Part shown: positions 911-19,098 of the stretch, piece by piece
Layout: each line of letters starts with the position of its first letter
Numbering within the stretch: the first letter of the stretch is position 1
Source of the DNA: Escherichia coli
GTDB taxonomy: Bacteria; Pseudomonadota; Gammaproteobacteria; Enterobacterales; Enterobacteriaceae
Strand: one strand, 5' to 3'
DNA: 64,000 bases
Assembly (NCBI RefSeq): GCF_044324785.1
Contig: NZ_CP172127.1
Notes under the pieces: generated by a model
Told to the model about the DNA's origin: nothing
Seen by the model: only the letters and a program-made list of their open reading frames with translations
Database searches by the model: none
Program-made: the position numbers and the translations under genes

Positions 911-1027
911 TGTTATATTATTTCTTTTAAAGGCAGTCTGCTACTATCAATATTTTGTTTGAAATAGTCTAATATATGATTCCAAAACCGCATACATCGC
1001 GGTGAACACCCCTGACAGGAGTAAACA

Positions 1028-2434
1028 ATGTCAAAGCAACAGATCGGCGTCGTCGGTATGGCAGTGATGGGGCGCAACCTTGCGCTCAACATCGAAAGCC
1101 GTGGTTATACCGTCTCTATTTTCAACCGTTCCCGTGAGAAAACGGAAGAAGTGATTGCCGAAAATCCAGGCAAGAAACTGGTTCCTTACTATACGGTGAA
1201 AGAGTTTGTTGAATCTCTGGAAACGCCTCGTCGCATCCTGTTAATGGTGAAAGCAGGTGCAGGCACGGATGCTGCTATTGATTCTCTCAAGCCATACCTC
1301 GATAAAGGCGACATCATCATTGATGGTGGTAACACCTTCTTCCAGGACACCATCCGTCGTAACCGTGAGCTTTCTGCTGAAGGCTTTAACTTCATTGGTA
1401 CCGGTGTCTCCGGTGGTGAGGAGGGCGCACTAAAAGGTCCTTCCATTATGCCTGGTGGGCAGAAAGAAGCCTATGAACTGGTTGCGCCGATCCTGACCAA
1501 AATCGCCGCAGTGGCTGAAGACGGTGAGCCATGCGTTACCTATATTGGTGCCGATGGTGCAGGTCACTATGTGAAGATGGTTCACAACGGTATTGAATAC
1601 GGCGATATGCAGCTGATTGCTGAAGCCTATTCTCTGCTTAAAGGTGGCCTGAATCTTTCCAACGAAGAACTGGCGCAGACCTTTACCGAGTGGAATAACG
1701 GTGAACTGAGCAGCTACCTGATCGACATCACCAAAGATATCTTCACCAAAAAAGATGAAGACGGTAACTACCTGGTTGATGTGATTCTGGATGAAGCAGC
1801 AAACAAAGGTACGGGCAAATGGACCAGCCAGAGTGCGCTGGATCTCGGCGAACCGCTGTCGCTGATTACCGAGTCTGTGTTTGCACGTTATATCTCTTCT
1901 CTGAAAGATCAGCGTGTTGCCGCATCTAAAGTTCTCTCTGGTCCGCAAGCACAGCCAGCAGGCGATAAGGCTGAGTTTATCGAAAAAGTTCGTCGTGCGC
2001 TGTATCTGGGCAAAATCGTTTCTTACGCTCAGGGCTTCTCTCAGCTGCGTGCGGCGTCTGAAGAGTACAACTGGGATCTGAACTACGGCGAAATCGCGAA
2101 GATTTTCCGTGCTGGCTGCATCATCCGTGCGCAGTTCCTGCAGAAAATCACCGATGCATATGCCGAAAATCCGCAGATCGCTAACCTGCTGCTGGCTCCG
2201 TACTTTAAACAAATTGCCGATGATTACCAGCAGGCGCTGCGTGATGTCGTTGCTTATGCAATACAGAACGGTATCCCGGTTCCGACCTTCGCCGCTGCGG
2301 TTGCCTATTATGACAGCTACCGTGCCGCTGTTCTGCCTGCGAACCTGATCCAAGCACAGCGTGACTATTTCGGTGCGCATACTTATAAGCGCATTGATAA
2401 AGATGGTGTGTTCCATACCGAATGGCTGGATTAA
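1028..2434 (+). CDS. gnd: 6-phosphogluconate dehydrogenase, decarboxylating
   Basis: 468 aa, [21 protein letters not shown].. recognised as Gnd; ATG with upstream AGGAG. Confidence 0.97.
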
Positions 2435-2462
2435 TCTGATTTAAATCAATTAATCAATGCAA

Positions 2463-2491
2463 GGCCCGGAGAAACCCTCCGGGCTTTTTTA
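2463..2491 (+). terminator. Rho-independent terminator after gnd
   Basis: GC hairpin ggcccggag-aaac-cctccgggc followed by a T run. Confidence 0.6.
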
Positions 2492-2682
2492 TTATACAAA
2501 GCGGCAGGTTATGGCCTTTTTTTATAATTTATAGTTAAAAACGCGATATAATACAGCGCCGCACAGCAGGATCGCTGCCTTGACAGTTCATCTACATCAG
2601 CGTTAAAAATCCCGCAGTAGATGAAGTTGTGGTGGTGGACTAATGACCACTCTAAATGTTTAACCGGAAGAAGTCAGAGCTA

Positions 2683-3849
2683 ATGAAAATAACAATTTCA
2701 GGAACAGGTTATGTTGGTCTTTCAAATGGTATTCTGATTGCGCAAAATCACGAAGTGGTTGCACTGGATATCGTTCAGGCCAAAGTGGACATGCTTAACA
2801 AGAAGCAGTCACCGATTGTTGATAAGGAGATTGAAGAGTATCTGGCGACTAAAGATCTCAATTTCCGCGCTACGACAGATAAGTATGACGCGTATAAAAA
2901 TGCCGATTACGTTATTATTGCCACGCCTACCGATTATGACCCGAAAACAAATTATTTTAATACCTCAAGCGTGGAAGCGGTCATTCGCGATGTGACAGAA
3001 ATTAATCCTAATGCTGTCATGGTGATTAAATCTACAATTCCGGTAGGTTTCACCAAATCAATTAAAGAACGTCTGGGTATCGATAACCTTATTTTCTCTC
3101 CGGAATTTCTCCGTGAAGGTAAAGCCCTTTACGATAATCTCCATCCTTCACGTATTGTCATTGGTGAGCGTTCAGAACGCGCAGAACGTTTTGCTGCGTT
3201 GTTACAGGAAGGGGCGATTAAGCAAAATATCCCGACCCTGTTCACCGATTCAACCGAAGCAGAAGCGATTAAACTTTTCGCTAATACCTATCTGGCGATG
3301 CGCGTAGCATACTTTAATGAACTGGATAGCTATGCAGAAAGTTTAGGTCTGAATACTCGCCAGATTATCGAAGGCGTTTGTCTCGATCCGCGTATTGGCA
3401 ACCATTACAACAATCCGTCGTTTGGTTATGGTGGTTATTGTCTGCCGAAAGATACCAAGCAGTTACTGGCGAACTACCAGTCTGTGCCGAATAACCTGAT
3501 TTCGGCAATTGTCGATGCTAACCGCACACGTAAAGACTTTATTGCCGATGCCATTTTGTCACGCAAACCGCAAGTGGTGGGTATTTATCGTCTGATTATG
3601 AAGAGCGGTTCAGATAACTTCCGTGCGTCTTCCATTCAGGGGATTATGAAGCGTATCAAGGCGAAAGGCGTTGAAGTGATCATCTACGAACCGGTGATGA
3701 AAGAAGACTCATTCTTCAACTCTCGCCTGGAACGTGATCTCGCGACCTTCAAACAACAAGCCGACGTCATTATCTCTAACCGTATGGCAGAAGAGCTTAA
3801 GGATGTGGCAGATAAGGTATACACCCGCGATCTCTTTGGCAGTGACTAA
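2683..3849 (+). CDS. ugd: UDP-glucose 6-dehydrogenase
   Basis: Starts [16 protein letters not shown] (388 aa) at an internal ATG of ORF 2656..3849; Rossmann GxGxxG motif. Confidence 0.95.
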
Positions 3850-3992
3850 CATCCTGTTATCAGGGCGATTTTCGCCCTGATTCTCTTATGTTCCCTTTGT
3901 AATAATTCATTATTTTTATCATTTATCCTATAGCATTCATGGCGATTATCGCTAAACTATGGCGACTTAAAATTATTTCGTCCGTTAGGGTA

Positions 3993-4973
3993 ATGATGAG
4001 AGTAGAAAATAATAATGTTTCTGGGCAAAACCATGACCCGGAACAGATTGATTTGATTGATTTACTGGTGCAGTTGTGGCGTGGCAAGATGACAATTATC
4101 ATCTCTGTCATTGTTGCTATTGCCCTGGCTATAGGGTATCTGGCCGTTGCCAAAGAAAAGTGGACTTCCACAGCTATCGTTACTCAACCTGATGTGGGGC
4201 AAATCGCTGGTTATACCAACGCGATGAATGTGATCTACGGATCGGCTGTACCGAAAGTCTCCGACATTCAGGCTTCACTTATCGGACGTTACAGCACTGC
4301 ATTCTCAGCATTAGCGGAAACGCTGGATAACCAGGAAGAAGCAGAAAAGCTGACCATTGAGCCTACCGTTAAAAATCAGTCATTACCTTTAGCGGTTTCT
4401 TATGTGGGTGAAACACCTGAAGGTGCGCAGAAACAGCTGGCGAAGTATATCCAGCAAGTTGACGACCAGGTAAACGAAGAACTGGAAAAAGACCTGAAAG
4501 ACAACATCGCGCTGCGTATGAAAAACTTGCAGGATTCGCTGAAGACCCAGGAAGTGGTCGCGCAGGAGCAGAAAGATCTGCGTATCCGTCAGATTCAGGA
4601 AGCGTTGCAGTATGCGAATCAGGCGCAGGTGACAAAGCCACAGGTTCAGCAGACTGAAGATGTGACACAAGACACGTTGTTCCTTTTGGGGAGCGAAGCG
4701 CTGGAGTCGATGATTAAGCATGAGGCGACCCGTCCGTTGGTGTTCTCGCCAAACTACTATCAGACTCGTCAAAACCTGCTGGATATCGAAAGCTTAAAAG
4801 TTGATGATCTTGATATTCATGCTTACCGTTATGTGATGAAACCGACGTTACCTATTCGTCGCGATAGTCCGAAAAAGGCAATCACCTTGATTCTGGCGGT
4901 GCTGCTGGGCGGCATGGTTGGCGCGGGGATTGTGCTGGGGCGTAACGCTCTGCGTAATTACAACGCGAAGTAA
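3993..4973 (+). CDS. wzzB: O-antigen chain length determinant (Wzz, polysaccharide co-polymerase)
   Basis: Translation MRVENNNVSGQNHDPEQIDLIDLL.. with C-terminal TM segment and proline/glycine motif; start chosen at the internal ATG pair of ORF 3939..4973. Confidence 0.9.
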   Translation: MMRVENNNVSGQNHDPEQIDLIDLLVQLWRGKMTIIISVIVAIALAIGYLAVAKEKWTSTAIVTQPDVGQIAGYTNAMNVIYGSAVPKVSDIQASLIGRYSTAFSALAETLDNQEEAEKLTIEPTVKNQSLPLAVSYVGETPEGAQKQLAKYIQQVDDQVNEELEKDLKDNIALRMKNLQDSLKTQEVVAQEQKDLRIRQIQEALQYANQAQVTKPQVQQTEDVTQDTLFLLGSEALESMIKHEATRPLVFSPNYYQTRQNLLDIESLKVDDLDIHAYRYVMKPTLPIRRDSPKKAITLILAVLLGGMVGAGIVLGRNALRNYNAK

Positions 4974-4995
4974 TCTTTTCGGTTTTAAAGAAAAA

Positions 4996-5028
4996 GGGCA
5001 GGGTGGTGACACCTTGCCCGTTTTTTTT
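4996..5028. terminator. Bidirectional intrinsic terminator between wzzB (+) and hisI (-)
   Basis: Hairpin gggcagggtggtgacaccttgccc flanked by a T run on the plus strand and an A run (T run on minus) upstream; a second inverted repeat follows at about 5029-5057. Confidence 0.55.
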
Positions 5029-5069
5029 GCCGGATGCGACAACAATATCGCATCCGCTTACCCCGCAAC

Positions 5070-5674
5070 TCACTGATGCCGTTTACGCAGGTTCTCAATC
5101 ACCGTCGTTAAATCCAGATCCTGATCCTGCAACAATACCAGCAGGTGATACATCAAGTCAGACGCCTCGTTGGTGAGTTCAAAGCGGTCATGTACCGTTG
5201 CTGCTAGTGCGGTTTCCACGCCTTCTTCGCCCACTTTCTGTGCAATGCGTTTGGTGCCGCTGGCATACAGTTTGGCGGTGTAGGAGGTTTCCGGGTCGGC
5301 AGATTTACGTTCGGCGAGCAGTTGTTCCAGTTGATACAGGAACAGCCACTGGTGAGCGGTGTCGCCGAAGCAGCTGCTGGTGCCTTTGTGGCAGGTTGGT
5401 CCGATAGGATTCGCCAGTACCAGTAGCGTGTCGTTGTCGCAGTCCGGCGCAATATTTACTACGTTGAGGAAATTGCCCGACGTTTCGCCTTTGGTCCACA
5501 GCCGTTGTTTAGTGCGCGAGAAGAAGGTGACTTTGCCGCTTTCGATGGTTTTGTCTAAAGCTTCCGGGTTCATATAGCCCAGCATTAGCACTTCACCGGA
5601 TACCGCGTGTTGCACAATCACCGGCATAAGTCCGTCGGTTTTTTCCCAGTCCAGTTCGCGACGTTGTTGTTCTG

Positions 5675-5681
<7 letters not shown>
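5070..5681 (-). CDS. hisI: Bifunctional phosphoribosyl-AMP cyclohydrolase / phosphoribosyl-ATP pyrophosphatase
   Basis: 203 aa, [25 protein letters not shown].. recognised as HisIE. Confidence 0.95.
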
Positions 5682-7759
<2,078 letters not shown>

Positions 7760-7760
<1 letters not shown>

Positions 7761-8826
7761 TACAGCACTCCTTTCGACGAGGGCAGGGTATCGCCTTCCA
7801 CGCGGATGGCCTGGCGCAGGGTGCGACCAAAGGCTTTGAACAGGCTCTCTACACGGTGGTGATCGTTTTTACCTTTGGTTTTCAGGTGCAACGTCACGCC
7901 CATGGTGTAAGAGAGCGAACGGAAGAAGTGCTCGATCATCTCGGTGCTGAGATCGCCGACGCGCTGGTAGGTAAATTCAGCTTTATATTCCAGGTGTGGG
8001 CGACCAGAGATATCCAGTGCACAGCGGGCAAGGCATTCGTCCATCGGCAGCACAAAACCAAAGCGGCAAATACCGCGTTTGTCACCGAGGGCAATTTTTA
8101 ATGCTTCGCCCAGCGCCAGGCCGGTATCTTCGACGGTGTGGTGATCGTCGATATAGAGGTCGCCTTTGACGTTGATTTCCATACGGAAACCGCCGTGGGT
8201 AGCGATCTGATCCAGCATGTGATCAAAGAAGCCAACGCCGGTGTTAATCTTGCTGCCACCTTCGCGATCCAGCCACACCTGGACGTCAATCTGCGTCTCT
8301 TTGGTGTTGCGCACTACATGGGCGTAACGGTCTCGTTTCGTGAGTTGCTCGCCAATCATCGGCCAGTTCAGGGTTTCGCGGTTGTAGCGTAAACCATTAA
8401 TGCCCATGTTTTCCGCCAGTTGAATGTCGGTCGCGCGATCGCCAATCACATAACTGTTGGCGCGATCCATCGCTTGCTCAGCCAGGTAACGCTCCACCAG
8501 TTTTACTTTCGGCTTACGGCAGTCGCACTCATCGGCGGGCAGGTGCGGACAAATCAGCACTTCATCAAACTGCACGCCTTGCGAGGTGAAGATCTGCATC
8601 ATCAGGTTGTGCGGGCCATCAAAATCCGCCTGCGGGAAACTTTGTGTTCCAAGACCATCCTGATTAGTGATCATCACCAGCTTGTAGCCCGCTTTTTGCA
8701 GCTTCAGCAGCTCCGGGATCACGCCTGGTTCAAAGGCGAGTTTGTCAAAACGGTCCACCTGAAAATCACTCGGCGGTTCGCTAATCAGGGTTCCATCGCG
8801 ATCGATAAAAAGATACTTCTGACTCA

Positions 8827-8827
<1 letters not shown>
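7760..8827 (-). CDS. hisB: Bifunctional histidinol-phosphatase / imidazoleglycerol-phosphate dehydratase
   Basis: [15 protein letters not shown].. HisB; second ATG of ORF 7760..8830 taken as start. Confidence 0.93.
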
Positions 8828-11198
<2,371 letters not shown>

Positions 11199-11203
11199 GG
11201 CGA

Positions 11204-12103
11204 TCACTCCATCATCTTCTCAATCGGCAGGACCAGGATTGAACTGGCACCCAGCGCTTTCAGTTTTTCCATCGTTTCCCAGAACAGGGTTTCGCTGCTG
11301 ACCATGTGCATCGCTACGCGCTGTTGATCACCCGCCAGCGGCAGAATGGTTGGGCGTTCGGCACCTGGCAGCAGGGCGATGACTTCATCCAGGCGTTCGG
11401 TCGGTGCGTGCATCATGATGTATTTTGATTCGCGCGCCTGGATCACACCCTGAATACGGGTCAGCAGTTTGTCGATCAGCTGCTGTTTAGATTCTTCCAT
11501 TTCTCCATCGCGCTGGATCAGGCAGGCTTTCGAGCGGTAGATAACTTCGACTTCGCGCAGGCCATTTGCTTCCAGCGTGGCACCGGTGGAAACCAGATCG
11601 CAAATCGCATCCGCCAGTCCGGCGCGCGGGGCGACTTCAACAGAACCGTTCAGTAAGCAGGATTTAAAAGAGATGCCTTTCTGGTCGAGATAACGCTTGA
11701 GCAGGTGAGGATAAGAGGTGGCGATACGTTTACCGTTTAAGGAGAGCGGACCGTCCCAGGCTTCATCAACCGGCGTTGCCAGCGAAAGGCGGCAGCCGCC
11801 GAAATCCAGTCGACGCAGGGTAAAGTAGCGCGGATCTTCACCCTGGGCGCGGCGGTTAAGCAGCTCTTCTTCCAGCACGTTTTCGCCGATAATCCCAAGG
11901 TCTACCACGCCGTCCATTACCAGACCGGGAATGTCGTCGTCACGCACGCGCAGAATATCAATCGGCATGTTTTCTGCCATCGCGATCAGGCGCTGGGTGT
12001 GAAGATTAATTTTAATGCCACAGCGCGCCAGTAATTCGCGTGAGTCATCACTTAAACGGCCGGATTTCTGCATAGCTATGCGTAAACGAGTGTTGTCTGT
12101 CAT
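11204..12103 (-). CDS. hisG: ATP phosphoribosyltransferase
   Basis: [25 protein letters not shown].. HisG (299 aa); internal ATG of ORF 11204..12142 taken as start. Confidence 0.93.
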
Positions 12104-12149
12104 TTTGTTATTCCTCTTTAAACCTGTCTGAACCGTTATCAACCGCGCA

Positions 12150-12186
12150 ATAAAAAAGCCCCCGGAAGGTGATCTTCCGGGGGCTT
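12150..12186 (-). terminator. his operon attenuator terminator
   Basis: On the minus strand agcccccggaag..cttccgggggct hairpin followed by a U run, located between hisL and hisG. Confidence 0.85.
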
Positions 12187-12248
12187 TCTCATGCGTTCAT
12201 GCACCACTGGAAGATCTGAATGTCTTCCAGCACACATCGCCTGAAAGA

Positions 12249-12299
12249 CTAGTCAGGATGATGGTGATGATGGTGGTGTTTAAATTGAACGCGTGTCAT
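12249..12299 (-). CDS. hisL: his operon leader peptide
   Basis: Minus-strand reading gives ATG ACA CGC GTT CAA TTT AAA (CAC/CAT)x7 CCT GAC TAG = MTRVQFKHHHHHHHPD; too short to appear in the ORF track. Confidence 0.95.
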   Translation of the reverse strand: MTRVQFKHHHHHHHPD

Positions 12300-12523
12300 A
12301 AAAGTCTCTGTGAATGTTTATTCAACTGATGTCATTTAACCTAAACCACTTTCACGTTAGAAAGCAAGGGCTTTTTTATATATTTTATGGCGATGGATTT
12401 GTTTAATGAATGAGCGGGGAAAGGTGGGGGCCAGGAGTGACTACGTTAGAAAAGTAATCGTGAAAATATGTCTTTAAAACCCTCAAGAACATTGTGTTCT
12501 GTAACTAAAGTGGGCTTTGTTCC

Positions 12524-12557
12524 TGCCGGATGCGGCGTGAATGCCTTATCAGGTCTA
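12524..12557. repeat. REP (repetitive extragenic palindromic) element
   Basis: gccggatgcggcgtgaatgccttatcaggtctac matches the E. coli REP consensus; lies in the hisL-yeeZ intergenic region. Confidence 0.6.
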
Positions 12558-12725
12558 CAAATGTTGCCTAAATTCAATATATTGATGTTTTTGTAGGACT
12601 GATAAGCGGAGCGCATCAGTCAATGGTATATTTGCTAACAGTTTCGATTTCATTCATAGAATGAATTGTCAGTTTTGATACGCTAGCGTAGCCTTATAGA
12701 TCTAAGGTGTATCAGGAGATAACGG

Positions 12726-13550
12726 ATGAAAAAGGTCGCAATTGTCGGGTTAGGGTGGTTAGGCATGCCGCTGGCGATGTCACTTTCAGCGCGAGGCTGG
12801 CAAGTCACCGGGAGTAAAACCACACAAGATGGTGTCGAAGCGGCCCGAATGAGTGGCATTGATAGCTATCTGCTTCGCATGGAGCCTGAGTTAGTTTGCG
12901 ATTCTGACGATCTGGATGCCCTGATGGATGCCGATGCGCTGGTCATTACGCTTCCGGCACGTCGTAGCGGCCCCGGCGATGAGTTCTATTTACAAGCGGT
13001 ACAAGAGTTAGTGGATAGCGCGCTGGCCCATCGTATTCCCCGCATTATTTTTACCAGCTCAACATCTGTCTATGGCGACGCGCAAGGCACGGTGAAAGAA
13101 ACCACCCCGCGTAATCCGGTGACCAACAGTGGACGAGTATTAGAAGAACTCGAAGACTGGTTGCACAATTTACCCGGTACTTCGGTCGATATTCTGCGTC
13201 TTGCGGGCCTGGTCGGGCCGGGACGTCATCCCGGACGTTTCTTTGCCGGAAAAACCGCCCCTGATGGTGAACATGGTGTTAATTTAGTCCATTTAGAAGA
13301 TGTTATTGGCGCTATCACTCTGTTGTTACAGGCACCTAAAGGCGGACACATCTATAATATATGTGCGCCAGCTCACCCTGCGCGTAATGTTTTCTACCCG
13401 CAGATGGCCCGTTTACTGGGGCTGGAACCTCCGCAGTTCAGAAATAGTCTGGACAGCGGCAAAGGTAAGATTATTGATGGCAGTCGGATTTGTAATGAAC
13501 TGGGATTTGAATACCAGTATCCCGATCCGCTGGTAATGCCGCTGGAGTAA
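12726..13550 (+). CDS. yeeZ: NAD-dependent epimerase/dehydratase-like protein
   Basis: 274 aa, MKKVAIVGLGWLGMPLAMSLSARGWQVTG.. recognised as YeeZ (Rossmann fold). Confidence 0.9.
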   Translation: MKKVAIVGLGWLGMPLAMSLSARGWQVTGSKTTQDGVEAARMSGIDSYLLRMEPELVCDSDDLDALMDADALVITLPARRSGPGDEFYLQAVQELVDSALAHRIPRIIFTSSTSVYGDAQGTVKETTPRNPVTNSGRVLEELEDWLHNLPGTSVDILRLAGLVGPGRHPGRFFAGKTAPDGEHGVNLVHLEDVIGAITLLLQAPKGGHIYNICAPAHPARNVFYPQMARLLGLEPPQFRNSLDSGKGKIIDGSRICNELGFEYQYPDPLVMPLE

Positions 13551-13595
13551 ACGATCACGCCAGCAGGACGCCGCATGCACTGCAAGGGGGCGTGT

Positions 13596-14525
13596 ATGAA
13601 ACCACTGCTGGATGTGTTGATGATCCTCGATGCCTTAGAAAAAGAGGGCAGTTTTGCGGCGGCGTCGGCTAAACTCTACAAGACGCCGTCCGCTCTGAGT
13701 TATACCGTTCACAAGCTGGAAAGCGACCTTAATATTCAATTGCTTGATCGTAGCGGACACCGCGCTAAATTCACCCGCACCGGAAAAATGTTATTAGAGA
13801 AAGGGCGGGAAGTTCTGCATACCGTGCGAGAACTGGAAAAGCAGGCGATCAAACTGCATGAAGGCTGGGAAAACGAGCTGGTGATTGGCGTGGACGACAC
13901 GTTTCCTTTTTCTCTGCTTGCGCCACTCATTGAAGCTTTTTATCAACATCATAGTGTGACGCGCCTGAAGTTTATCAATGGCGTACTCGGTGGCTCCTGG
14001 GATGCCCTGACTCAGGGTCGAGCGGATATTATTGTTGGCGCAATGCATGAGCCACCATCTTCCAGTGAGTTTGGTTTTTCACGGTTGGGCGATCTGGAAC
14101 AAGTCTTTGCGGTCGCGCCTCATCATCCGTTAGCCCTGGAAGAAGAACCGTTAAACCGTCGTATCATTAAACGATATCGGGCGATTGTGGTGGGGGACAC
14201 TGCACAGGCCGGCGCTTCTACGGCCTCACAACTTCTCGACGAACAAGAAGCTATTACCGTTTTCGATTTTAAAACCAAGCTGGAGCTGCAAATTAGCGGC
14301 CTCGGCTGCGGCTATTTACCCCGTTATCTGGCGCAACGTTTTCTCGATAGTGGCGCGTTAATCGAGAAGAAAGTAGTCGCCCAAACTCTCTTTGAACCCG
14401 TCTGGATTGGCTGGAACGAACAGACCGCAGGGCTTGCCAGCGGTTGGTGGCGAGATGAAATTTTAGCAAATAGTGCGATCGCCGGTGTTTATGCAAAATC
14501 TGATGACGGAAAATCAGCCATTTAA
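13596..14525 (+). CDS. yeeY: LysR-family transcriptional regulator
   Basis: MKPLLDVLMILDALEKEGSFAAASAKLYKTPSALSYTVHKLE.. (LysR HTH); internal ATG of ORF 13575..14525. Confidence 0.9.
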   Translation: MKPLLDVLMILDALEKEGSFAAASAKLYKTPSALSYTVHKLESDLNIQLLDRSGHRAKFTRTGKMLLEKGREVLHTVRELEKQAIKLHEGWENELVIGVDDTFPFSLLAPLIEAFYQHHSVTRLKFINGVLGGSWDALTQGRADIIVGAMHEPPSSSEFGFSRLGDLEQVFAVAPHHPLALEEEPLNRRIIKRYRAIVVGDTAQAGASTASQLLDEQEAITVFDFKTKLELQISGLGCGYLPRYLAQRFLDSGALIEKKVVAQTLFEPVWIGWNEQTAGLASGWWRDEILANSAIAGVYAKSDDGKSAI

Positions 14526-14791
14526 AGAAAAATTATTATGACAAGCCTCTCATTCTCTTGTCATTTCCCCCCCATTTAGGCACAATGCGCCGCTGTCAAA
14601 AAATGACTAAAAACCGACGTTTCATCAGCGTCGGTTATTTTTTGCTTCAAACCAATCATTCATACCAAGAGGCCGGGCTTCGTACCGGATAGATATTTAC
14701 TAAAAATCGACAGTTGTTGTCGCTGAGGAATCCAAAAAAATGGGGCAATTTTTTGCTTACGCGACGGTTATCACCGTAAAGGAGAATGACC

Positions 14792-16150
14792 ATGTCGCAT
14801 AACGTTACTCCAAACACCTCTCGCGTGGAATTGCGTAAAACGCTTACGTTAGTTCCGGTTGTAATGATGGGTCTTGCCTATATGCAGCCGATGACGCTGT
14901 TTGATACTTTTGGTATCGTTTCAGGCCTCACGGATGGTCATGTGCCGACAGCCTATGCGTTCGCATTGATTGCGATCCTGTTTACGGCTCTGAGCTACGG
15001 GAAGCTGGTTCGCCGCTATCCTTCTGCTGGCTCTGCATACACTTACGCCCAGAAATCCATTAGCCCGACTGTCGGCTTTATGGTGGGTTGGTCTTCTCTG
15101 CTCGACTATCTGTTCGCGCCGATGATCAACATTCTGCTGGCGAAAATCTATTTTGAAGCTCTGGTGCCTTCCATCCCATCGTGGATGTTTGTGGTGGCGC
15201 TGGTGGCCTTTATGACCGCCTTTAACCTGCGTAGTCTGAAATCCGTAGCGAACTTCAACACTGTAATCGTCGTGTTGCAGGTAGTGCTGATCGCGGTGAT
15301 TCTGGGCATGGTTGTTTATGGCGTATTTGAAGGTGAAGGCGCTGGTACGCTGGCGAGCACTCGTCCGTTCTGGTCTGGCGATGCGCATGTTATCCCGATG
15401 ATTACCGGGGCGACAATCCTGTGCTTCTCCTTTACCGGCTTTGACGGCATCAGCAACCTGTCGGAAGAAACCAAAGATGCAGAGCGCGTGATCCCGCGTG
15501 CGATTTTCCTGACCGCGCTGATCGGCGGCATGATCTTCATCTTTGCAACTTACTTCCTGCAACTGTATTTCCCGGATATCTCTCGCTTTAAAGATCCGGA
15601 TGCGTCACAGCCTGAAATCATGCTGTACGTTGCGGGTAAAGCGTTCCAGGTTGGCGCGCTGATCTTCTCCACCATTACCGTACTGGCGTCCGGTATGGCG
15701 GCGCACGCAGGCGTTGCGCGTCTGATGTACGTAATGGGGCGTGACGGTGTGTTCCCGAAAAGCTTCTTCGGTTATGTACACCCGAAATGGCGTACTCCGG
15801 CAATGAACATCATCCTGGTTGGCGCGATTGCCTTGCTGGCAATCAACTTCGACCTGGTAATGGCTACGGCGCTGATTAACTTTGGTGCGCTGGTGGCGTT
15901 CACCTTCGTTAACCTGTCGGTTATTTCGCAGTTCTGGATCCGTGAGAAGCGTAACAAGACGCTGAAAGATCACTTCCAGTATCTGTTCCTGCCGATGTGT
16001 GGTGCGCTGACCGTTGGTGCGCTGTGGGTTAACCTGGAAGAAAGCTCAATGGTTCTGGGTCTGATCTGGGCGGCTATCGGCCTGATTTACCTGGCTTGCG
16101 TCACCAAGAGCTTCCGTAACCCGGTTCCGCAGTACGAAGACGTTGCATAA
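14792..16150 (+). CDS. plaP: Putrescine importer (APC superfamily permease)
   Basis: [33 protein letters not shown].. PlaP/YeeF; ATG at 14792 has AAGGAG 7 nt upstream. Confidence 0.93.
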
Positions 16151-16168
16151 TCATCTTTTCTAATAATA

Positions 16169-16207
16169 AACCGGAGTCGAATGAATATTTGGCTCCGGTT
16201 TTTTTAT
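16169..16207 (+). terminator. Rho-independent terminator after plaP
   Basis: Hairpin aaccggag..ctccggtt followed by a run of 8 T. Confidence 0.65.
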
Positions 16208-16328
16208 TCTTTTTTATCGATATCCTCATTAATAACCATTTGTTCTAATTTAGAGAATTTGGTTATTGGTCTGCATTCCACCAGTCATGAATAATTTCCC
16301 TATTAACATTCATCTGGTTAATTAATTT

Positions 16329-17387
16329 ATGTTTTCAATGATATTAAGCGGGCTAATTTGTGGTGCTCTGCTGGGATTTGTCATGCAGCGTGGGCGTTTT
16401 TGCCTGACAGGTGGTTTTCGCGATATGTATATCGCAAAAAATAATCGCATGTTTTACGCCTTGCTGATTGCAATTTCGGTACAAAGCGTGGGGGTTTTTG
16501 CGTTAATTCAGGCGGGCCTACTGACTTACGAAGCCGGGGCGTTCCCGTGGCTTGGTACTGTTATAGGTGGGTATATCTTCGGGCTGGGAATTGTTCTGGC
16601 GGGTGGATGTGCCACCGGGACCTGGTATCGCGCGGGTGAGGGATTGATCGGCAGTTGGATCGCGCTTTTCACTTATATGGTGATGAGTGCGGTGATGCGT
16701 TCTCCACATGCCAGTGGTTTAAATCAAACCTTGCAGCACTACAGTACTGAACATAACTCTATTGCTGAGACTTTTAATTTGTCTGTGTGGCCGTTGGTTA
16801 CCGTTTTGCTGGTGATAACGCTCTGGGTGGTGATGAAAGAGTTGAAGAAGCCAAAACTCAAAGTCGCGACCTTACCGCCGCGCCGAACCGGGATCGCTCA
16901 TATTCTGTTTGAAAAACGCTGGCATCCCTTTGTCACTGCTGTACTCATCGGTTTGATTGCGCTTTTAGCCTGGCCCCTGAGTGAAGCAACCGGACGCATG
17001 TTTGGGTTAGGAATCACTTCCCCAACGGCCAATATTCTGCAATTTCTGGTCGCGGGTGACGTGAAATACATTAACTGGGGCGTTTTCCTGGTGTTAGGGA
17101 TCTTCGTGGGGTCATTTATTGCAGCCAAAGCGAGCCGTGAGTTCCGCGTTCGCGCAGCTGATGCACAAACAACATTACGTAGCGGGTTAGGTGGTGTACT
17201 GATGGGCTTCGGTGCCAGTATTGCAGGTGGTTGCTCTATCGGTAATGGACTGGTTATGACTGCAATGATGACCTGGCAGGGCTGGATTGGCCTTGTATTT
17301 ATGATTCTCGGAGTCTGGACTGCGTCCTGGCTTGTGTATGTTCGACCGCAGCGTAAGGCGCGACTGGCAACTGCTGCGGCAAATTAA
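16329..17387 (+). CDS. yeeE: Inner membrane transporter YeeE (thiosulfate uptake, TsuA-like)
   Basis: 352 aa, MFSMILSGLICGALLGFVMQRGRFCLTGGF.. YeeE/YedE family with conserved Cys motifs. Confidence 0.92.
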   Translation: MFSMILSGLICGALLGFVMQRGRFCLTGGFRDMYIAKNNRMFYALLIAISVQSVGVFALIQAGLLTYEAGAFPWLGTVIGGYIFGLGIVLAGGCATGTWYRAGEGLIGSWIALFTYMVMSAVMRSPHASGLNQTLQHYSTEHNSIAETFNLSVWPLVTVLLVITLWVVMKELKKPKLKVATLPPRRTGIAHILFEKRWHPFVTAVLIGLIALLAWPLSEATGRMFGLGITSPTANILQFLVAGDVKYINWGVFLVLGIFVGSFIAAKASREFRVRAADAQTTLRSGLGGVLMGFGASIAGGCSIGNGLVMTAMMTWQGWIGLVFMILGVWTASWLVYVRPQRKARLATAAAN

Positions 17388-17400
17388 GTAAGGTGTAAAG

Positions 17401-17628
17401 ATGGCGATTAAAAAGCTGGATGTGGTGACGCAGGTCTGTCCGTTTCCACTCATAGAAGCAAAAGCAGCACTGGCAGAAATGGCCAGCGGCGATGAGTTGG
17501 TAATTGAGTTTGATTGCACCCAGGCAACTGAAGCAATCCCACAGTGGGCGGCAGAAGAAGGACATGCCATCACCGATTATCAGCAGATTGGCGATGCAGC
17601 GTGGAGCATCACCGTTCAAAAAGCCTGA
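17401..17628 (+). CDS. yeeD: TusA-like sulfurtransferase YeeD
   Basis: 75 aa with CPFP motif (MAIKKLDVVTQVCPFPLIEAK..), immediately downstream of yeeE. Confidence 0.92.
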   Translation: MAIKKLDVVTQVCPFPLIEAKAALAEMASGDELVIEFDCTQATEAIPQWAAEEGHAITDYQQIGDAAWSITVQKA

Positions 17629-17670
17629 CTCAACATTGTCCTCCGCCGTACCAGCGGCGGAGGCTTCAAA

Positions 17671-19098
17671 TTAGACGATCTCTTCCGCGTACTGCCAAAG
17701 CGCTTTTAACAGCGCCACTTTCTCTTTGTTATCGGCATATTGTTGTGCCAGCATCTGCAATTCATCTGCATAACCCTGTAAAAACTCTGGCGTGAAGACC
17801 TGGCGGCGGTGCTCCAGCCAGCGTTGCTGCTCGGCATAATCCAGCGTCCCCGGGAAGTTGCGCGCCCGATAATTGAACAACAGCTTTTCAATTCGTTTAT
17901 CAACAAAAGTGATATCCAGTGCCGGTAAATTACGCGGCTCGGTTTCCAGCACAATTTTCATTGCTGCACGATCGGCGTCACTGAAAAAGCCATTATAAAG
18001 CTGTGCATCCACATTATCTGAAGGTGTAAACGGTTCGGCTTCCGCGAATATCGCTACCACTTTTTCACGCACTTGCGGATTTTCACGCAGAATTTTTAGG
18101 TTATCGAGGCAATGCTGACGATTAATTCCCAGTCGGTCGGCATCTTCCGGGCGTAGCGTATTCGCCTGGGCCAGTACCGGACATTTATTGATATGCACCA
18201 GCTTAACCGGAACGGCGGCGTTATCGCCAAGATCGGCTTTTGCGGTATATAAACGCTCGCGCAATGTGTCGCTATCCAGTTCCAGTAATGGCGAAATGTC
18301 TCCTGCCAAATCCACCATAATTACGGCATTGCGATTTTCAGGATGCCACGCCAGCGGTGCTACCCAGCTGGTATTGCCGCGCCATGCCCCAAACATTCCG
18401 GAAACGTGAACCAGGGGTTTCATCTGCGGAACATCAATCAACGCCATTAGTTTGTGTTTATTACGATGGGTAAAGAGATAATCAAACAGGCGCGGCTGGC
18501 GCGTTTTTACCAGTTTTGCCATCGCAATAGTGGCGTACACATCAGCCATCGCATCGTGTGCGTTGCTATGTTCAATACCATTCGCTTTGGTTAAATGCTC
18601 AAGGCGAAAGCTCGGTAGACCGTCATCATTTTCAGGCCAGTTTATTCCTTCCGGGCGCAGGGCATAACAGGCACGCATAACATCCAGCAAATCCCAGCGC
18701 GAGTTATCATGCTGCCAGCTCCAGGCGTAAGGATCGTAGAAATTACGATAAAAAACGTTGCGTGTGACTTCGTCGTCGAAACGCACATTGTTGTAGCCCA
18801 GAATACAGGTCTTCGGTACGGTAAAAAGCGAGTGAATACGGGCGGCAAACGCGGCTTCGTTTTCTCCTTTCGCCCGTGCTTCCTGCGGGGTAATACCGGT
18901 AATTAATACTGCTCCAGGCTGGGGTAAATAGTCATCCGCGGGCTTGCAGTAAAAGACTTCGGGTTCGCCGATGACATTGAATTCGCTATCGGTGCGAATG
19001 GCTGCGAACTGTGCAGGGCGATCTAACGCGGGGTGCGTGCCAAAGGTTTCGTAATCGTGAAACAAAAAGGTAGATTGTTGCTTACCGTCATTCATCAT
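17671..19098 (-). CDS. sbcB: Exodeoxyribonuclease I
   Basis: MMNDGKQQSTFLFHDYETFGTHPALDRPAQFAAIRTD.. SbcB (475 aa); internal ATG of ORF 17671..19146. Confidence 0.95.
   Translation of the reverse strand: MMNDGKQQSTFLFHDYETFGTHPALDRPAQFAAIRTDSEFNVIGEPEVFYCKPADDYLPQPGAVLITGITPQEARAKGENEAAFAARIHSLFTVPKTCILGYNNVRFDDEVTRNVFYRNFYDPYAWSWQHDNSRWDLLDVMRACYALRPEGINWPENDDGLPSFRLEHLTKANGIEHSNAHDAMADVYATIAMAKLVKTRQPRLFDYLFTHRNKHKLMALIDVPQMKPLVHVSGMFGAWRGNTSWVAPLAWHPENRNAVIMVDLAGDISPLLELDSDTLRERLYTAKADLGDNAAVPVKLVHINKCPVLAQANTLRPEDADRLGINRQHCLDNLKILRENPQVREKVVAIFAEAEPFTPSDNVDAQLYNGFFSDADRAAMKIVLETEPRNLPALDITFVDKRIEKLLFNYRARNFPGTLDYAEQQRWLEHRRQVFTPEFLQGYADELQMLAQQYADNKEKVALLKALWQYAEEIV

Follow-up and report, generated by a model that had tools for sequence, protein, structure and literature searches.

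A TA-free, BIME-bearing form of the hisL–yeeZ interval in Escherichia coli and its probable relation to the yefM–yoeB form of K-12

The horizontal transfer of toxin–antitoxin (TA) systems of E. coli is reportedly treated by Ramisetty and Santhosh (2016), and ccdO157, situated between folA and apaH, is a comparable variable TA insertion. For the variably present chromosomal type II TA cassettes of E. coli, the horizontally moving unit has been described as a promoter/operator together with the ORFs, without a terminator (PMC5120126). A second family of intergenic elements relevant here are the BIMEs: in the Bachellier/Gilson nomenclature, BIME-1 consists of one y and one z1 REP separated by a long L linker that often contains an IHF site, and occurs as a single copy; at the base of its palindromes it has the GTAG tetranucleotide typical of REPs, which reads CTAC where the copy is inverted (PMC3333891). 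Both kinds of element meet at one chromosomal site, as Iguchi et al. (PLoS One, 2011) found yoeB/yefM to be missing from the yeeZ–hisL gap of O157 Sakai, where a REP is present instead; the same study lists yeeZ–hisL among the REP-containing intergenic regions and depicts a yeeZ–hisG indel including REPs in its Figure 4B (PMC3158064).

Here, we describe the same site in a 64-kb stretch of E. coli DNA (the window, whose positions are used below unless stated otherwise). It shows the same TA/REP contrast at the same locus as the O157 indel, and the polymorphism is thus already in the literature; the TA-less hisL–yeeZ allele is an ordinary, long-standing and previously known strain difference. 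However, the earlier comparison covered six O157 strains, without population frequencies, outgroup states, breakpoints or direction of change (PMC3158064). The present work adds incrementally to this how frequent the alleles are, where their breakpoints lie, which state the outgroups have, in which direction the change probably went and how the TA cassette relates to plasmid-borne ones.

The his operon lies on the minus strand of the window (hisG, 11204–12103), and its leader/attenuator RNA is recognized at 12150–12273 on the same strand (Rfam RF00514, 131.6 bits, E = 2.6e-23). The left border of the interval is the leader peptide gene hisL (MTRVQFKHHHHHHHPD; 12249–12299, minus strand), which was read from the sequence and has the same annotated coordinates in strain N3; the right border is yeeZ (12726–13550, plus strand), a 274-aa ORF for an SDR-family oxidoreductase that is annotated as yeeZ in N3 and C600 (both WP_000754737.1). 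With these two genes as borders, the gap is placed exactly at 12300–12725, that is, 426 bp with a G+C content of 38 %. An earlier note on this DNA had seen no ORF in it, which is right in substance, as none reaches 60 aa and neither Pfam nor NCBIfam gave a match for any of the small ORFs, but not to the letter, as six ORFs with an ATG start (23–56 aa) are present. No RefSeq feature is annotated in 12300–12725 among the listed genomes carrying this allele, and an Rfam scan of 11800–13000 at E ≤ 1 yielded the His leader as the sole credible match, with no sRNA family in the interval. A promoter/terminator scan found no terminator-like site and three promoter-like sites against 1.4 expected, an uninformative number except for a candidate −10 hexamer of yeeZ: the promoter-like arrangement CTAACA-16-TAGAAT, recognized by consensus match only, lies upstream of yeeZ with its predicted −10 hexamer TAGAAT at 12657–12662. 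This hexamer is overlapped by the inverted repeat TTCATTC-ATA-GAATGAA (12649–12665), a candidate operator that is the same in 7/7 Escherichia sequences aligned and partly kept in other genera. Just 3' of yeeZ follows yeeY, which encodes a LysR-type regulator.

In C600, a K-12 derivative, the annotated order is hisL, 282 bp, yefM, yoeB, 82 bp, yeeZ, with both TA genes on the yeeZ strand and a total interval of 867 bp, in agreement with the gene order that the earlier note had given for K-12. Pairwise alignment with this interval reveals near-identical flanks at 12300–12437 and 12649–12725, the yeeZ-proximal one (plus strand) being 100 % identical to K-12 and the left one extending to approximately 12442 by BLAST. 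Between them, 211 bp of the window (12438–12648) face 652 bp of K-12 sequence that contain yefM–yoeB and are unrelated to the window segment. Short microhomologies (ACAG) leave the left breakpoint uncertain by about 5 nt and the right one by about 12 nt. As the middle segments of the two alleles are mutually dissimilar, the difference is a replacement and not a clean insertion or deletion. The view that a REP stands here instead of the TA genes should not be read as TA loss, the REP-bearing allele being the likelier ancestral state of the genus.

The absence of the TA genes themselves, as claimed before, was borne out. The tblastn search with K-12 YefM and YoeB, proposed for the whole genome and run on the 64-kb window, gave nothing better than E = 0.37 (YefM) and 1.3 (YoeB), and blastn with the K-12-specific 652 bp found no match within 12300–12725. 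Adjacent yefM and yoeB ORFs do not occur anywhere in the window. Paired TGTACA hexamers upstream of yefM are visible in the K-12 alignment and are what we take to be the E. coli operator feature; the hexamer is absent from all of 12300–12725. A structural peculiarity of the K-12 form is a perfect palindrome with 11-bp arms, GCTAAGAGGAC-T-GTCCTCTTAGC, located exactly at the left junction of the insert (L001:1731–1753, the C600 locus). Its left arm is resident flank, the matching shared flank ending at window position 12437; GCTAAGAG at the left-arm position is also found in E. albertii and Escherichia sp. MOD1-EC7003, whereas the E. whittamii version of the palindrome is less perfect. A structural element or the footprint of a fold-back repair event are both conceivable.

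The 211 bp specific to the window allele begin with a single-copy, non-repeat part (12438–12522), for which blastn with 12380–12530 detected no paralogues in E. coli genomes (median one place per genome, highest two). It is followed by a y-type REP on the plus strand in inverted (iREP) orientation at 12525–12558 and by a z1-like REP on the minus strand at 12593–12621, which match their consensus at 31/34 and 26/29 positions, respectively, with zero matches expected for either in 100 shuffles. The strings used for scoring are taken to represent the y and z1-like consensus. Separate support for the REP identity of the two copies comes from an alignment with the BIME between cmoB and torZ (see below) and from the REP mapped in yeeZ–hisL (PMC3158064). 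The tetranucleotides CTAC (12555–12558) and GTAG (12593–12596) sit at the palindrome feet, both facing a 34-nt L-type linker (12559–12592). Since the y and z1-like REPs are inverted about this linker, the element is a BIME and not a lone REP; the REP-like palindrome of the earlier note was real. Both copies correspond to the 30–40-nt imperfect stem-loop expected of a REP, strongly so for the z1-like copy, whose hairpin is intact (fold of 12590–12624, −7.3 kcal/mol, z = −4.5), while the y copy is degenerate and folds weakly (12523–12560, −5.7 kcal/mol, z = −1.4). The homologous y copy of Escherichia sp. MOD1-EC7003 is nearer to the y consensus than that of the window.

In its architecture, the element closely resembles BIME-1 of E. 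coli, with a y and a z1 REP inverted relative to each other, GTAG/CTAC feet, a long linker with an IHF-like core, and no tandem repetition (PMC3333891). Its position is extragenic, and it is the sole copy found within the 64-kb window. It differs from BIME-1 in the decayed y copy, where three changes disrupt the stem, and in its location: it is flanked by two divergent promoters and does not follow the 3' end of a transcription unit, so that the function which REPs usually have at transcript 3' ends is unlikely here. Related BIMEs are found in 738 records at 80–90 % identity, and the one listed copy examined, between cmoB and torZ of E. coli H10, aligns with the window element at 82.5 % over about 100 nt, including the linker core, and shares AATTCAAT-N-TATTG within the linker. 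The core itself, AATTCAATATATTGATG at 12571–12587, fits 8/9 specified positions of WATCAANNNNTTR, a string that we take to be the IHF consensus. The BIME of hisL–yeeZ may bind IHF; most likely, it is a near-neutral relic.

Among 5,426 complete E. coli genomes, both forms are common, which supports the presence/absence polymorphism that had been suggested from the window alone, in which the form without the TA module contains a REP element. The BIME allele occurs in 1,193–1,196 genomes (~22 %), including O157:H7 and the BL21-derived C43(DE3), the count resting on the 211-bp segment at ≥80 % coverage (1,196 genomes). The TA allele is present in 4,212 genomes (77.6 %), including K-12, O55:H7, O121:H19 and strain '131'. 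Together, the two account for approximately 5,408 of the 5,426 genomes, consistent with near-perfect mutual exclusivity. Relocation of the TA module is rare, its 4,228 places being distributed over 4,218 genomes. Within E. coli, identity inside each allele is about 95–100 %, and this internal diversity of ~4–5 % in both indicates that both are old; the polymorphism may be shared across species. The allele of O157:H7 shares 98.0 % identity with the window across 601 bp. That O55:H7 carries the TA allele whereas O157:H7 carries the BIME allele fits the published replacement of ~130 kb around the O-antigen/his region in the O157:H7 lineage (PMC3158064).

One genome deserves separate mention. Strain HH97 (GCF_028201635.1, NZ_CP116409.1, L084:2325–2973) has a hisL–yeeZ interval of 649 bp with normal flanks, a singleton among the 5,426 genomes. 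In its middle part, 8-mers found only in K-12 and 8-mers found only in the window alternate in colinear order, in runs of mostly 7–37 nt, and ~48 % of positions agree with neither of the two. At 649 bp, the interval is about as long as the average of the 426- and 867-bp forms (646.5). We considered HH97 as a third allele or evolutionary intermediate and rejected this, as alternating short runs and a mean length are the pattern expected of a mixed-read consensus. Most probably, mixed reads were merged into one consensus during assembly.

To place the two alleles phylogenetically, one genome per species was scanned with YeeZ as query, which returned 80 loci; E. fergusonii, E. marmotae and E. ruysiae are not among them, and the genus is accordingly incompletely sampled. 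All 75 loci from outside Escherichia (including Citrobacter, Salmonella, Enterobacter, Klebsiella, Kluyvera and Raoultella) have a hisL–yeeZ interval of merely 155–188 bp with no YefM/YoeB match, and the BIME is absent from all nine non-Escherichia intervals aligned. What these short intervals of Citrobacter, Salmonella, Leclercia and others share with the window is the his promoter-side part at 12300–12395, which is conserved across Enterobacteriaceae; relative to the outgroups, Escherichia has some 250 extra bases starting near 12396. Within the genus, E. coli E69 (426 bp), E. albertii (425 bp), Escherichia sp. E1V33 (425 bp) and Escherichia sp. MOD1-EC7003 (424 bp) have the BIME allele and E. 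whittamii (866 bp) has the TA allele, so that among the 80 loci and the genomes compared TA at hisL–yeeZ is confined to E. coli and E. whittamii. A stretch of 42 bp (12396–12437) relates the two forms: K-12 and E. whittamii have it, as do E. albertii and the window, and it is missing in the nine aligned non-Escherichia intervals. Being specific to Escherichia yet common to the BIME and yefM–yoeB alleles, it implies that one allele derives from the other and that the two are not independent insertions into a short ancestral interval. The window and E. albertii share 88.6 % identity in the 211-bp segment, as compared to 92.2 % in yeeZ and 85.0 % in yeeY; a divergence in line with that of the neighbouring genes suggests that the segment is old and has been inherited vertically since the genus ancestor.

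A deviating record is that of 'E. coli' SY3626_hybrid (NZ_CP059283.1, L003), whose hisL–yeeZ interval measures 178 bp. The start of its hisL (…AACGCGGCTCAT) also occurs unchanged at several loci of Kluyvera, and across the His leader its identity to E. coli is no more than 88 %. Either the species label may be wrong, or foreign DNA may be present at hisL–yeeZ.

The TA allele has relatives on plasmids. The core of the K-12 insert is 83–86 % identical to plasmid-borne yefM–yoeB of Salmonella, Citrobacter and E. marmotae (pEM148), and this similarity is confined to L001:1819–2386, from 64 bp upstream of yefM to the stop codon of yoeB. On pEM148, a 149-kb plasmid, the cassette (L087:1501–2067, 83.5 % identical to K-12) adjoins type II secretion genes. 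In comparison with the variably present chromosomal type II TA cassettes of E. coli, the borders of the K-12 cassette fit the minimal mobile unit, and its site, too, is intergenic, belongs to the core genome and precedes a housekeeping gene; the present case is unlike them in that the window represents the TA-less state and in that the insertion also removed ~211 bp of resident sequence including a BIME (PMC5120126).

Taken together, the window carries a TA-free BIME allele, and we consider it likely that this REP-bearing form is ancestral and that the TA form of K-12 was derived from it by a later replacement. Anatomy, breakpoints, allele frequencies, outgroup states and plasmid similarity are observed; the direction of change, obtained by parsimony over six Escherichia genomes, and the origin in a single event are what we infer. 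The ancestral Enterobacteriaceae interval would have been short, and an Escherichia-specific expansion including the BIME would have produced the ~425-bp form, in which the his promoter region is followed by ~127 bp of single-copy DNA, one BIME-1-type repeat and the yeeZ promoter region. In the E. coli/E. whittamii lineage, a plasmid-type TA cassette would then have replaced ~211 bp of it, BIME included. Most likely, one illegitimate recombination event turned a BIME-type allele into the K-12 form, the incoming 652 bp consisting of ~80 bp at the left end plus the minimal plasmid-type cassette (promoter/operator, yefM, yoeB), whose last codon is the yoeB stop. The two forms would have coexisted in E. 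coli since then, with homologous recombination of the his/O-antigen flanks shuffling them between lineages.

The reverse course, in which the TA allele is ancestral and the window allele arose when yefM–yoeB was deleted and a BIME came in, mobilized for instance by TnpA-REP (RAYT), the transposase associated with REPs, appears unlikely. It would account for the TA allele being the majority form in E. coli and also occurring in E. whittamii, and BIMEs are known sources of intergenic polymorphism, TnpA-REP being able to cleave and recombine BIME DNA in vitro (PMC3333891). However, the replaced segment includes 85 + 26 bp (111 bp) of single-copy, non-REP DNA that mobilization of a REP does not supply, the BIME allele is present in E. 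albertii at species-level divergence, TA at hisL–yeeZ is found in no outgroup, and the likeness of the TA core to plasmid cassettes stops exactly at the cassette borders. Still less can be said for the 211 bp as a heavily decayed yefM–yoeB with HH97 as natural intermediate, which we regard as hardly credible: although the HH97 interval shares short colinear stretches with both alleles, it is a singleton with the alternating runs expected of a mixed-read assembly consensus, the K-12 insert has no detectable similarity to 12438–12648, and canonical y and z1 REPs cannot come from the decay of coding sequence.

A different kind of alternative concerns function rather than history, namely that the allele-specific segment contributes its own function as an alternative to that of the TA module, either through a 29-aa protein (12492..12403, minus strand) or through a regulator site at 12457–12498. 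The ORF is intact and of equal length in 5/5 Escherichia BIME alleles, and the three substitutions within its first 12 codons are all synonymous; the 42 nt of 12457–12498 vary at only three positions across five Escherichia sequences and partly overlap a palindrome with 6-bp arms, AGAACA-TTG-TGTTCT (12486–12500). Over the whole ORF, however, 6 synonymous stand against 13 non-synonymous changes, indistinguishable from the other five frames (4:15 to 7:12), there is no evident Shine–Dalgarno sequence upstream, and no Pfam, NCBIfam or Rfam match and no RefSeq annotation in the listed records support it, which makes an own function very improbable. As a gene, the 29-aa minus-strand ORF was rejected on account of its substitution count, no better than that of other frames, and the missing family match. 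The start codon of this ORF falls within the AGAACA-TTG-TGTTCT palindrome. Similarly improbable, if by a hair less so, is a broader version in which the alleles are not neutral: 12457–12498 would be a regulatory site or micro-gene lost in TA strains, or the left-junction palindrome of K-12 would be the footprint of fold-back repair at a break beside the BIME. If 12457–12498 were functional, expression of yeeZ or of the his operon would differ between the alleles, and selection would be maintaining the polymorphism. The replacement of an ancestral BIME allele by a TA cassette remains the preferred reading.

As to the surroundings of the locus, the window is 100 % identical to strain N3 over 12200–12800, 98.35 % over 1008–16152 and 99.74 % over 17673–51448. 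Its first ~1 kb is unlike N3, where the end of a glycosyltransferase gene adjoins gnd, and over 1–25000 the complete RefSeq genomes of E. coli reach at most 97.6 %. The region around the O-antigen/his locus is a recombination mosaic. Between plaP and sbcB (16153–17672), the window contains ~1.4 kb missing from N3, with a 352-aa membrane-protein ORF (16329–17387) and a 75-aa ORF with a CPFP motif (17401–17628); by position and size, these are most likely yeeE/yeeD (tsuA/tsuB). Strains without yeeD/yeeE have been noted before (PMC3158064).

For the organism, these results mean that the YoeB mRNA interferase is not encoded where it usually is on the chromosome, a condition that the strain has in common with about one fifth of sequenced E. 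coli and that is of relevance when K-12 results on TA systems, or on the K-12 multiple-TA-deletion strains, are transferred to other strains. Beyond this, the locus would represent a clean example of a minimal plasmid-type TA cassette that settled in a core intergenic region, displaced a BIME and was afterwards moved between lineages along with O-antigen switching.
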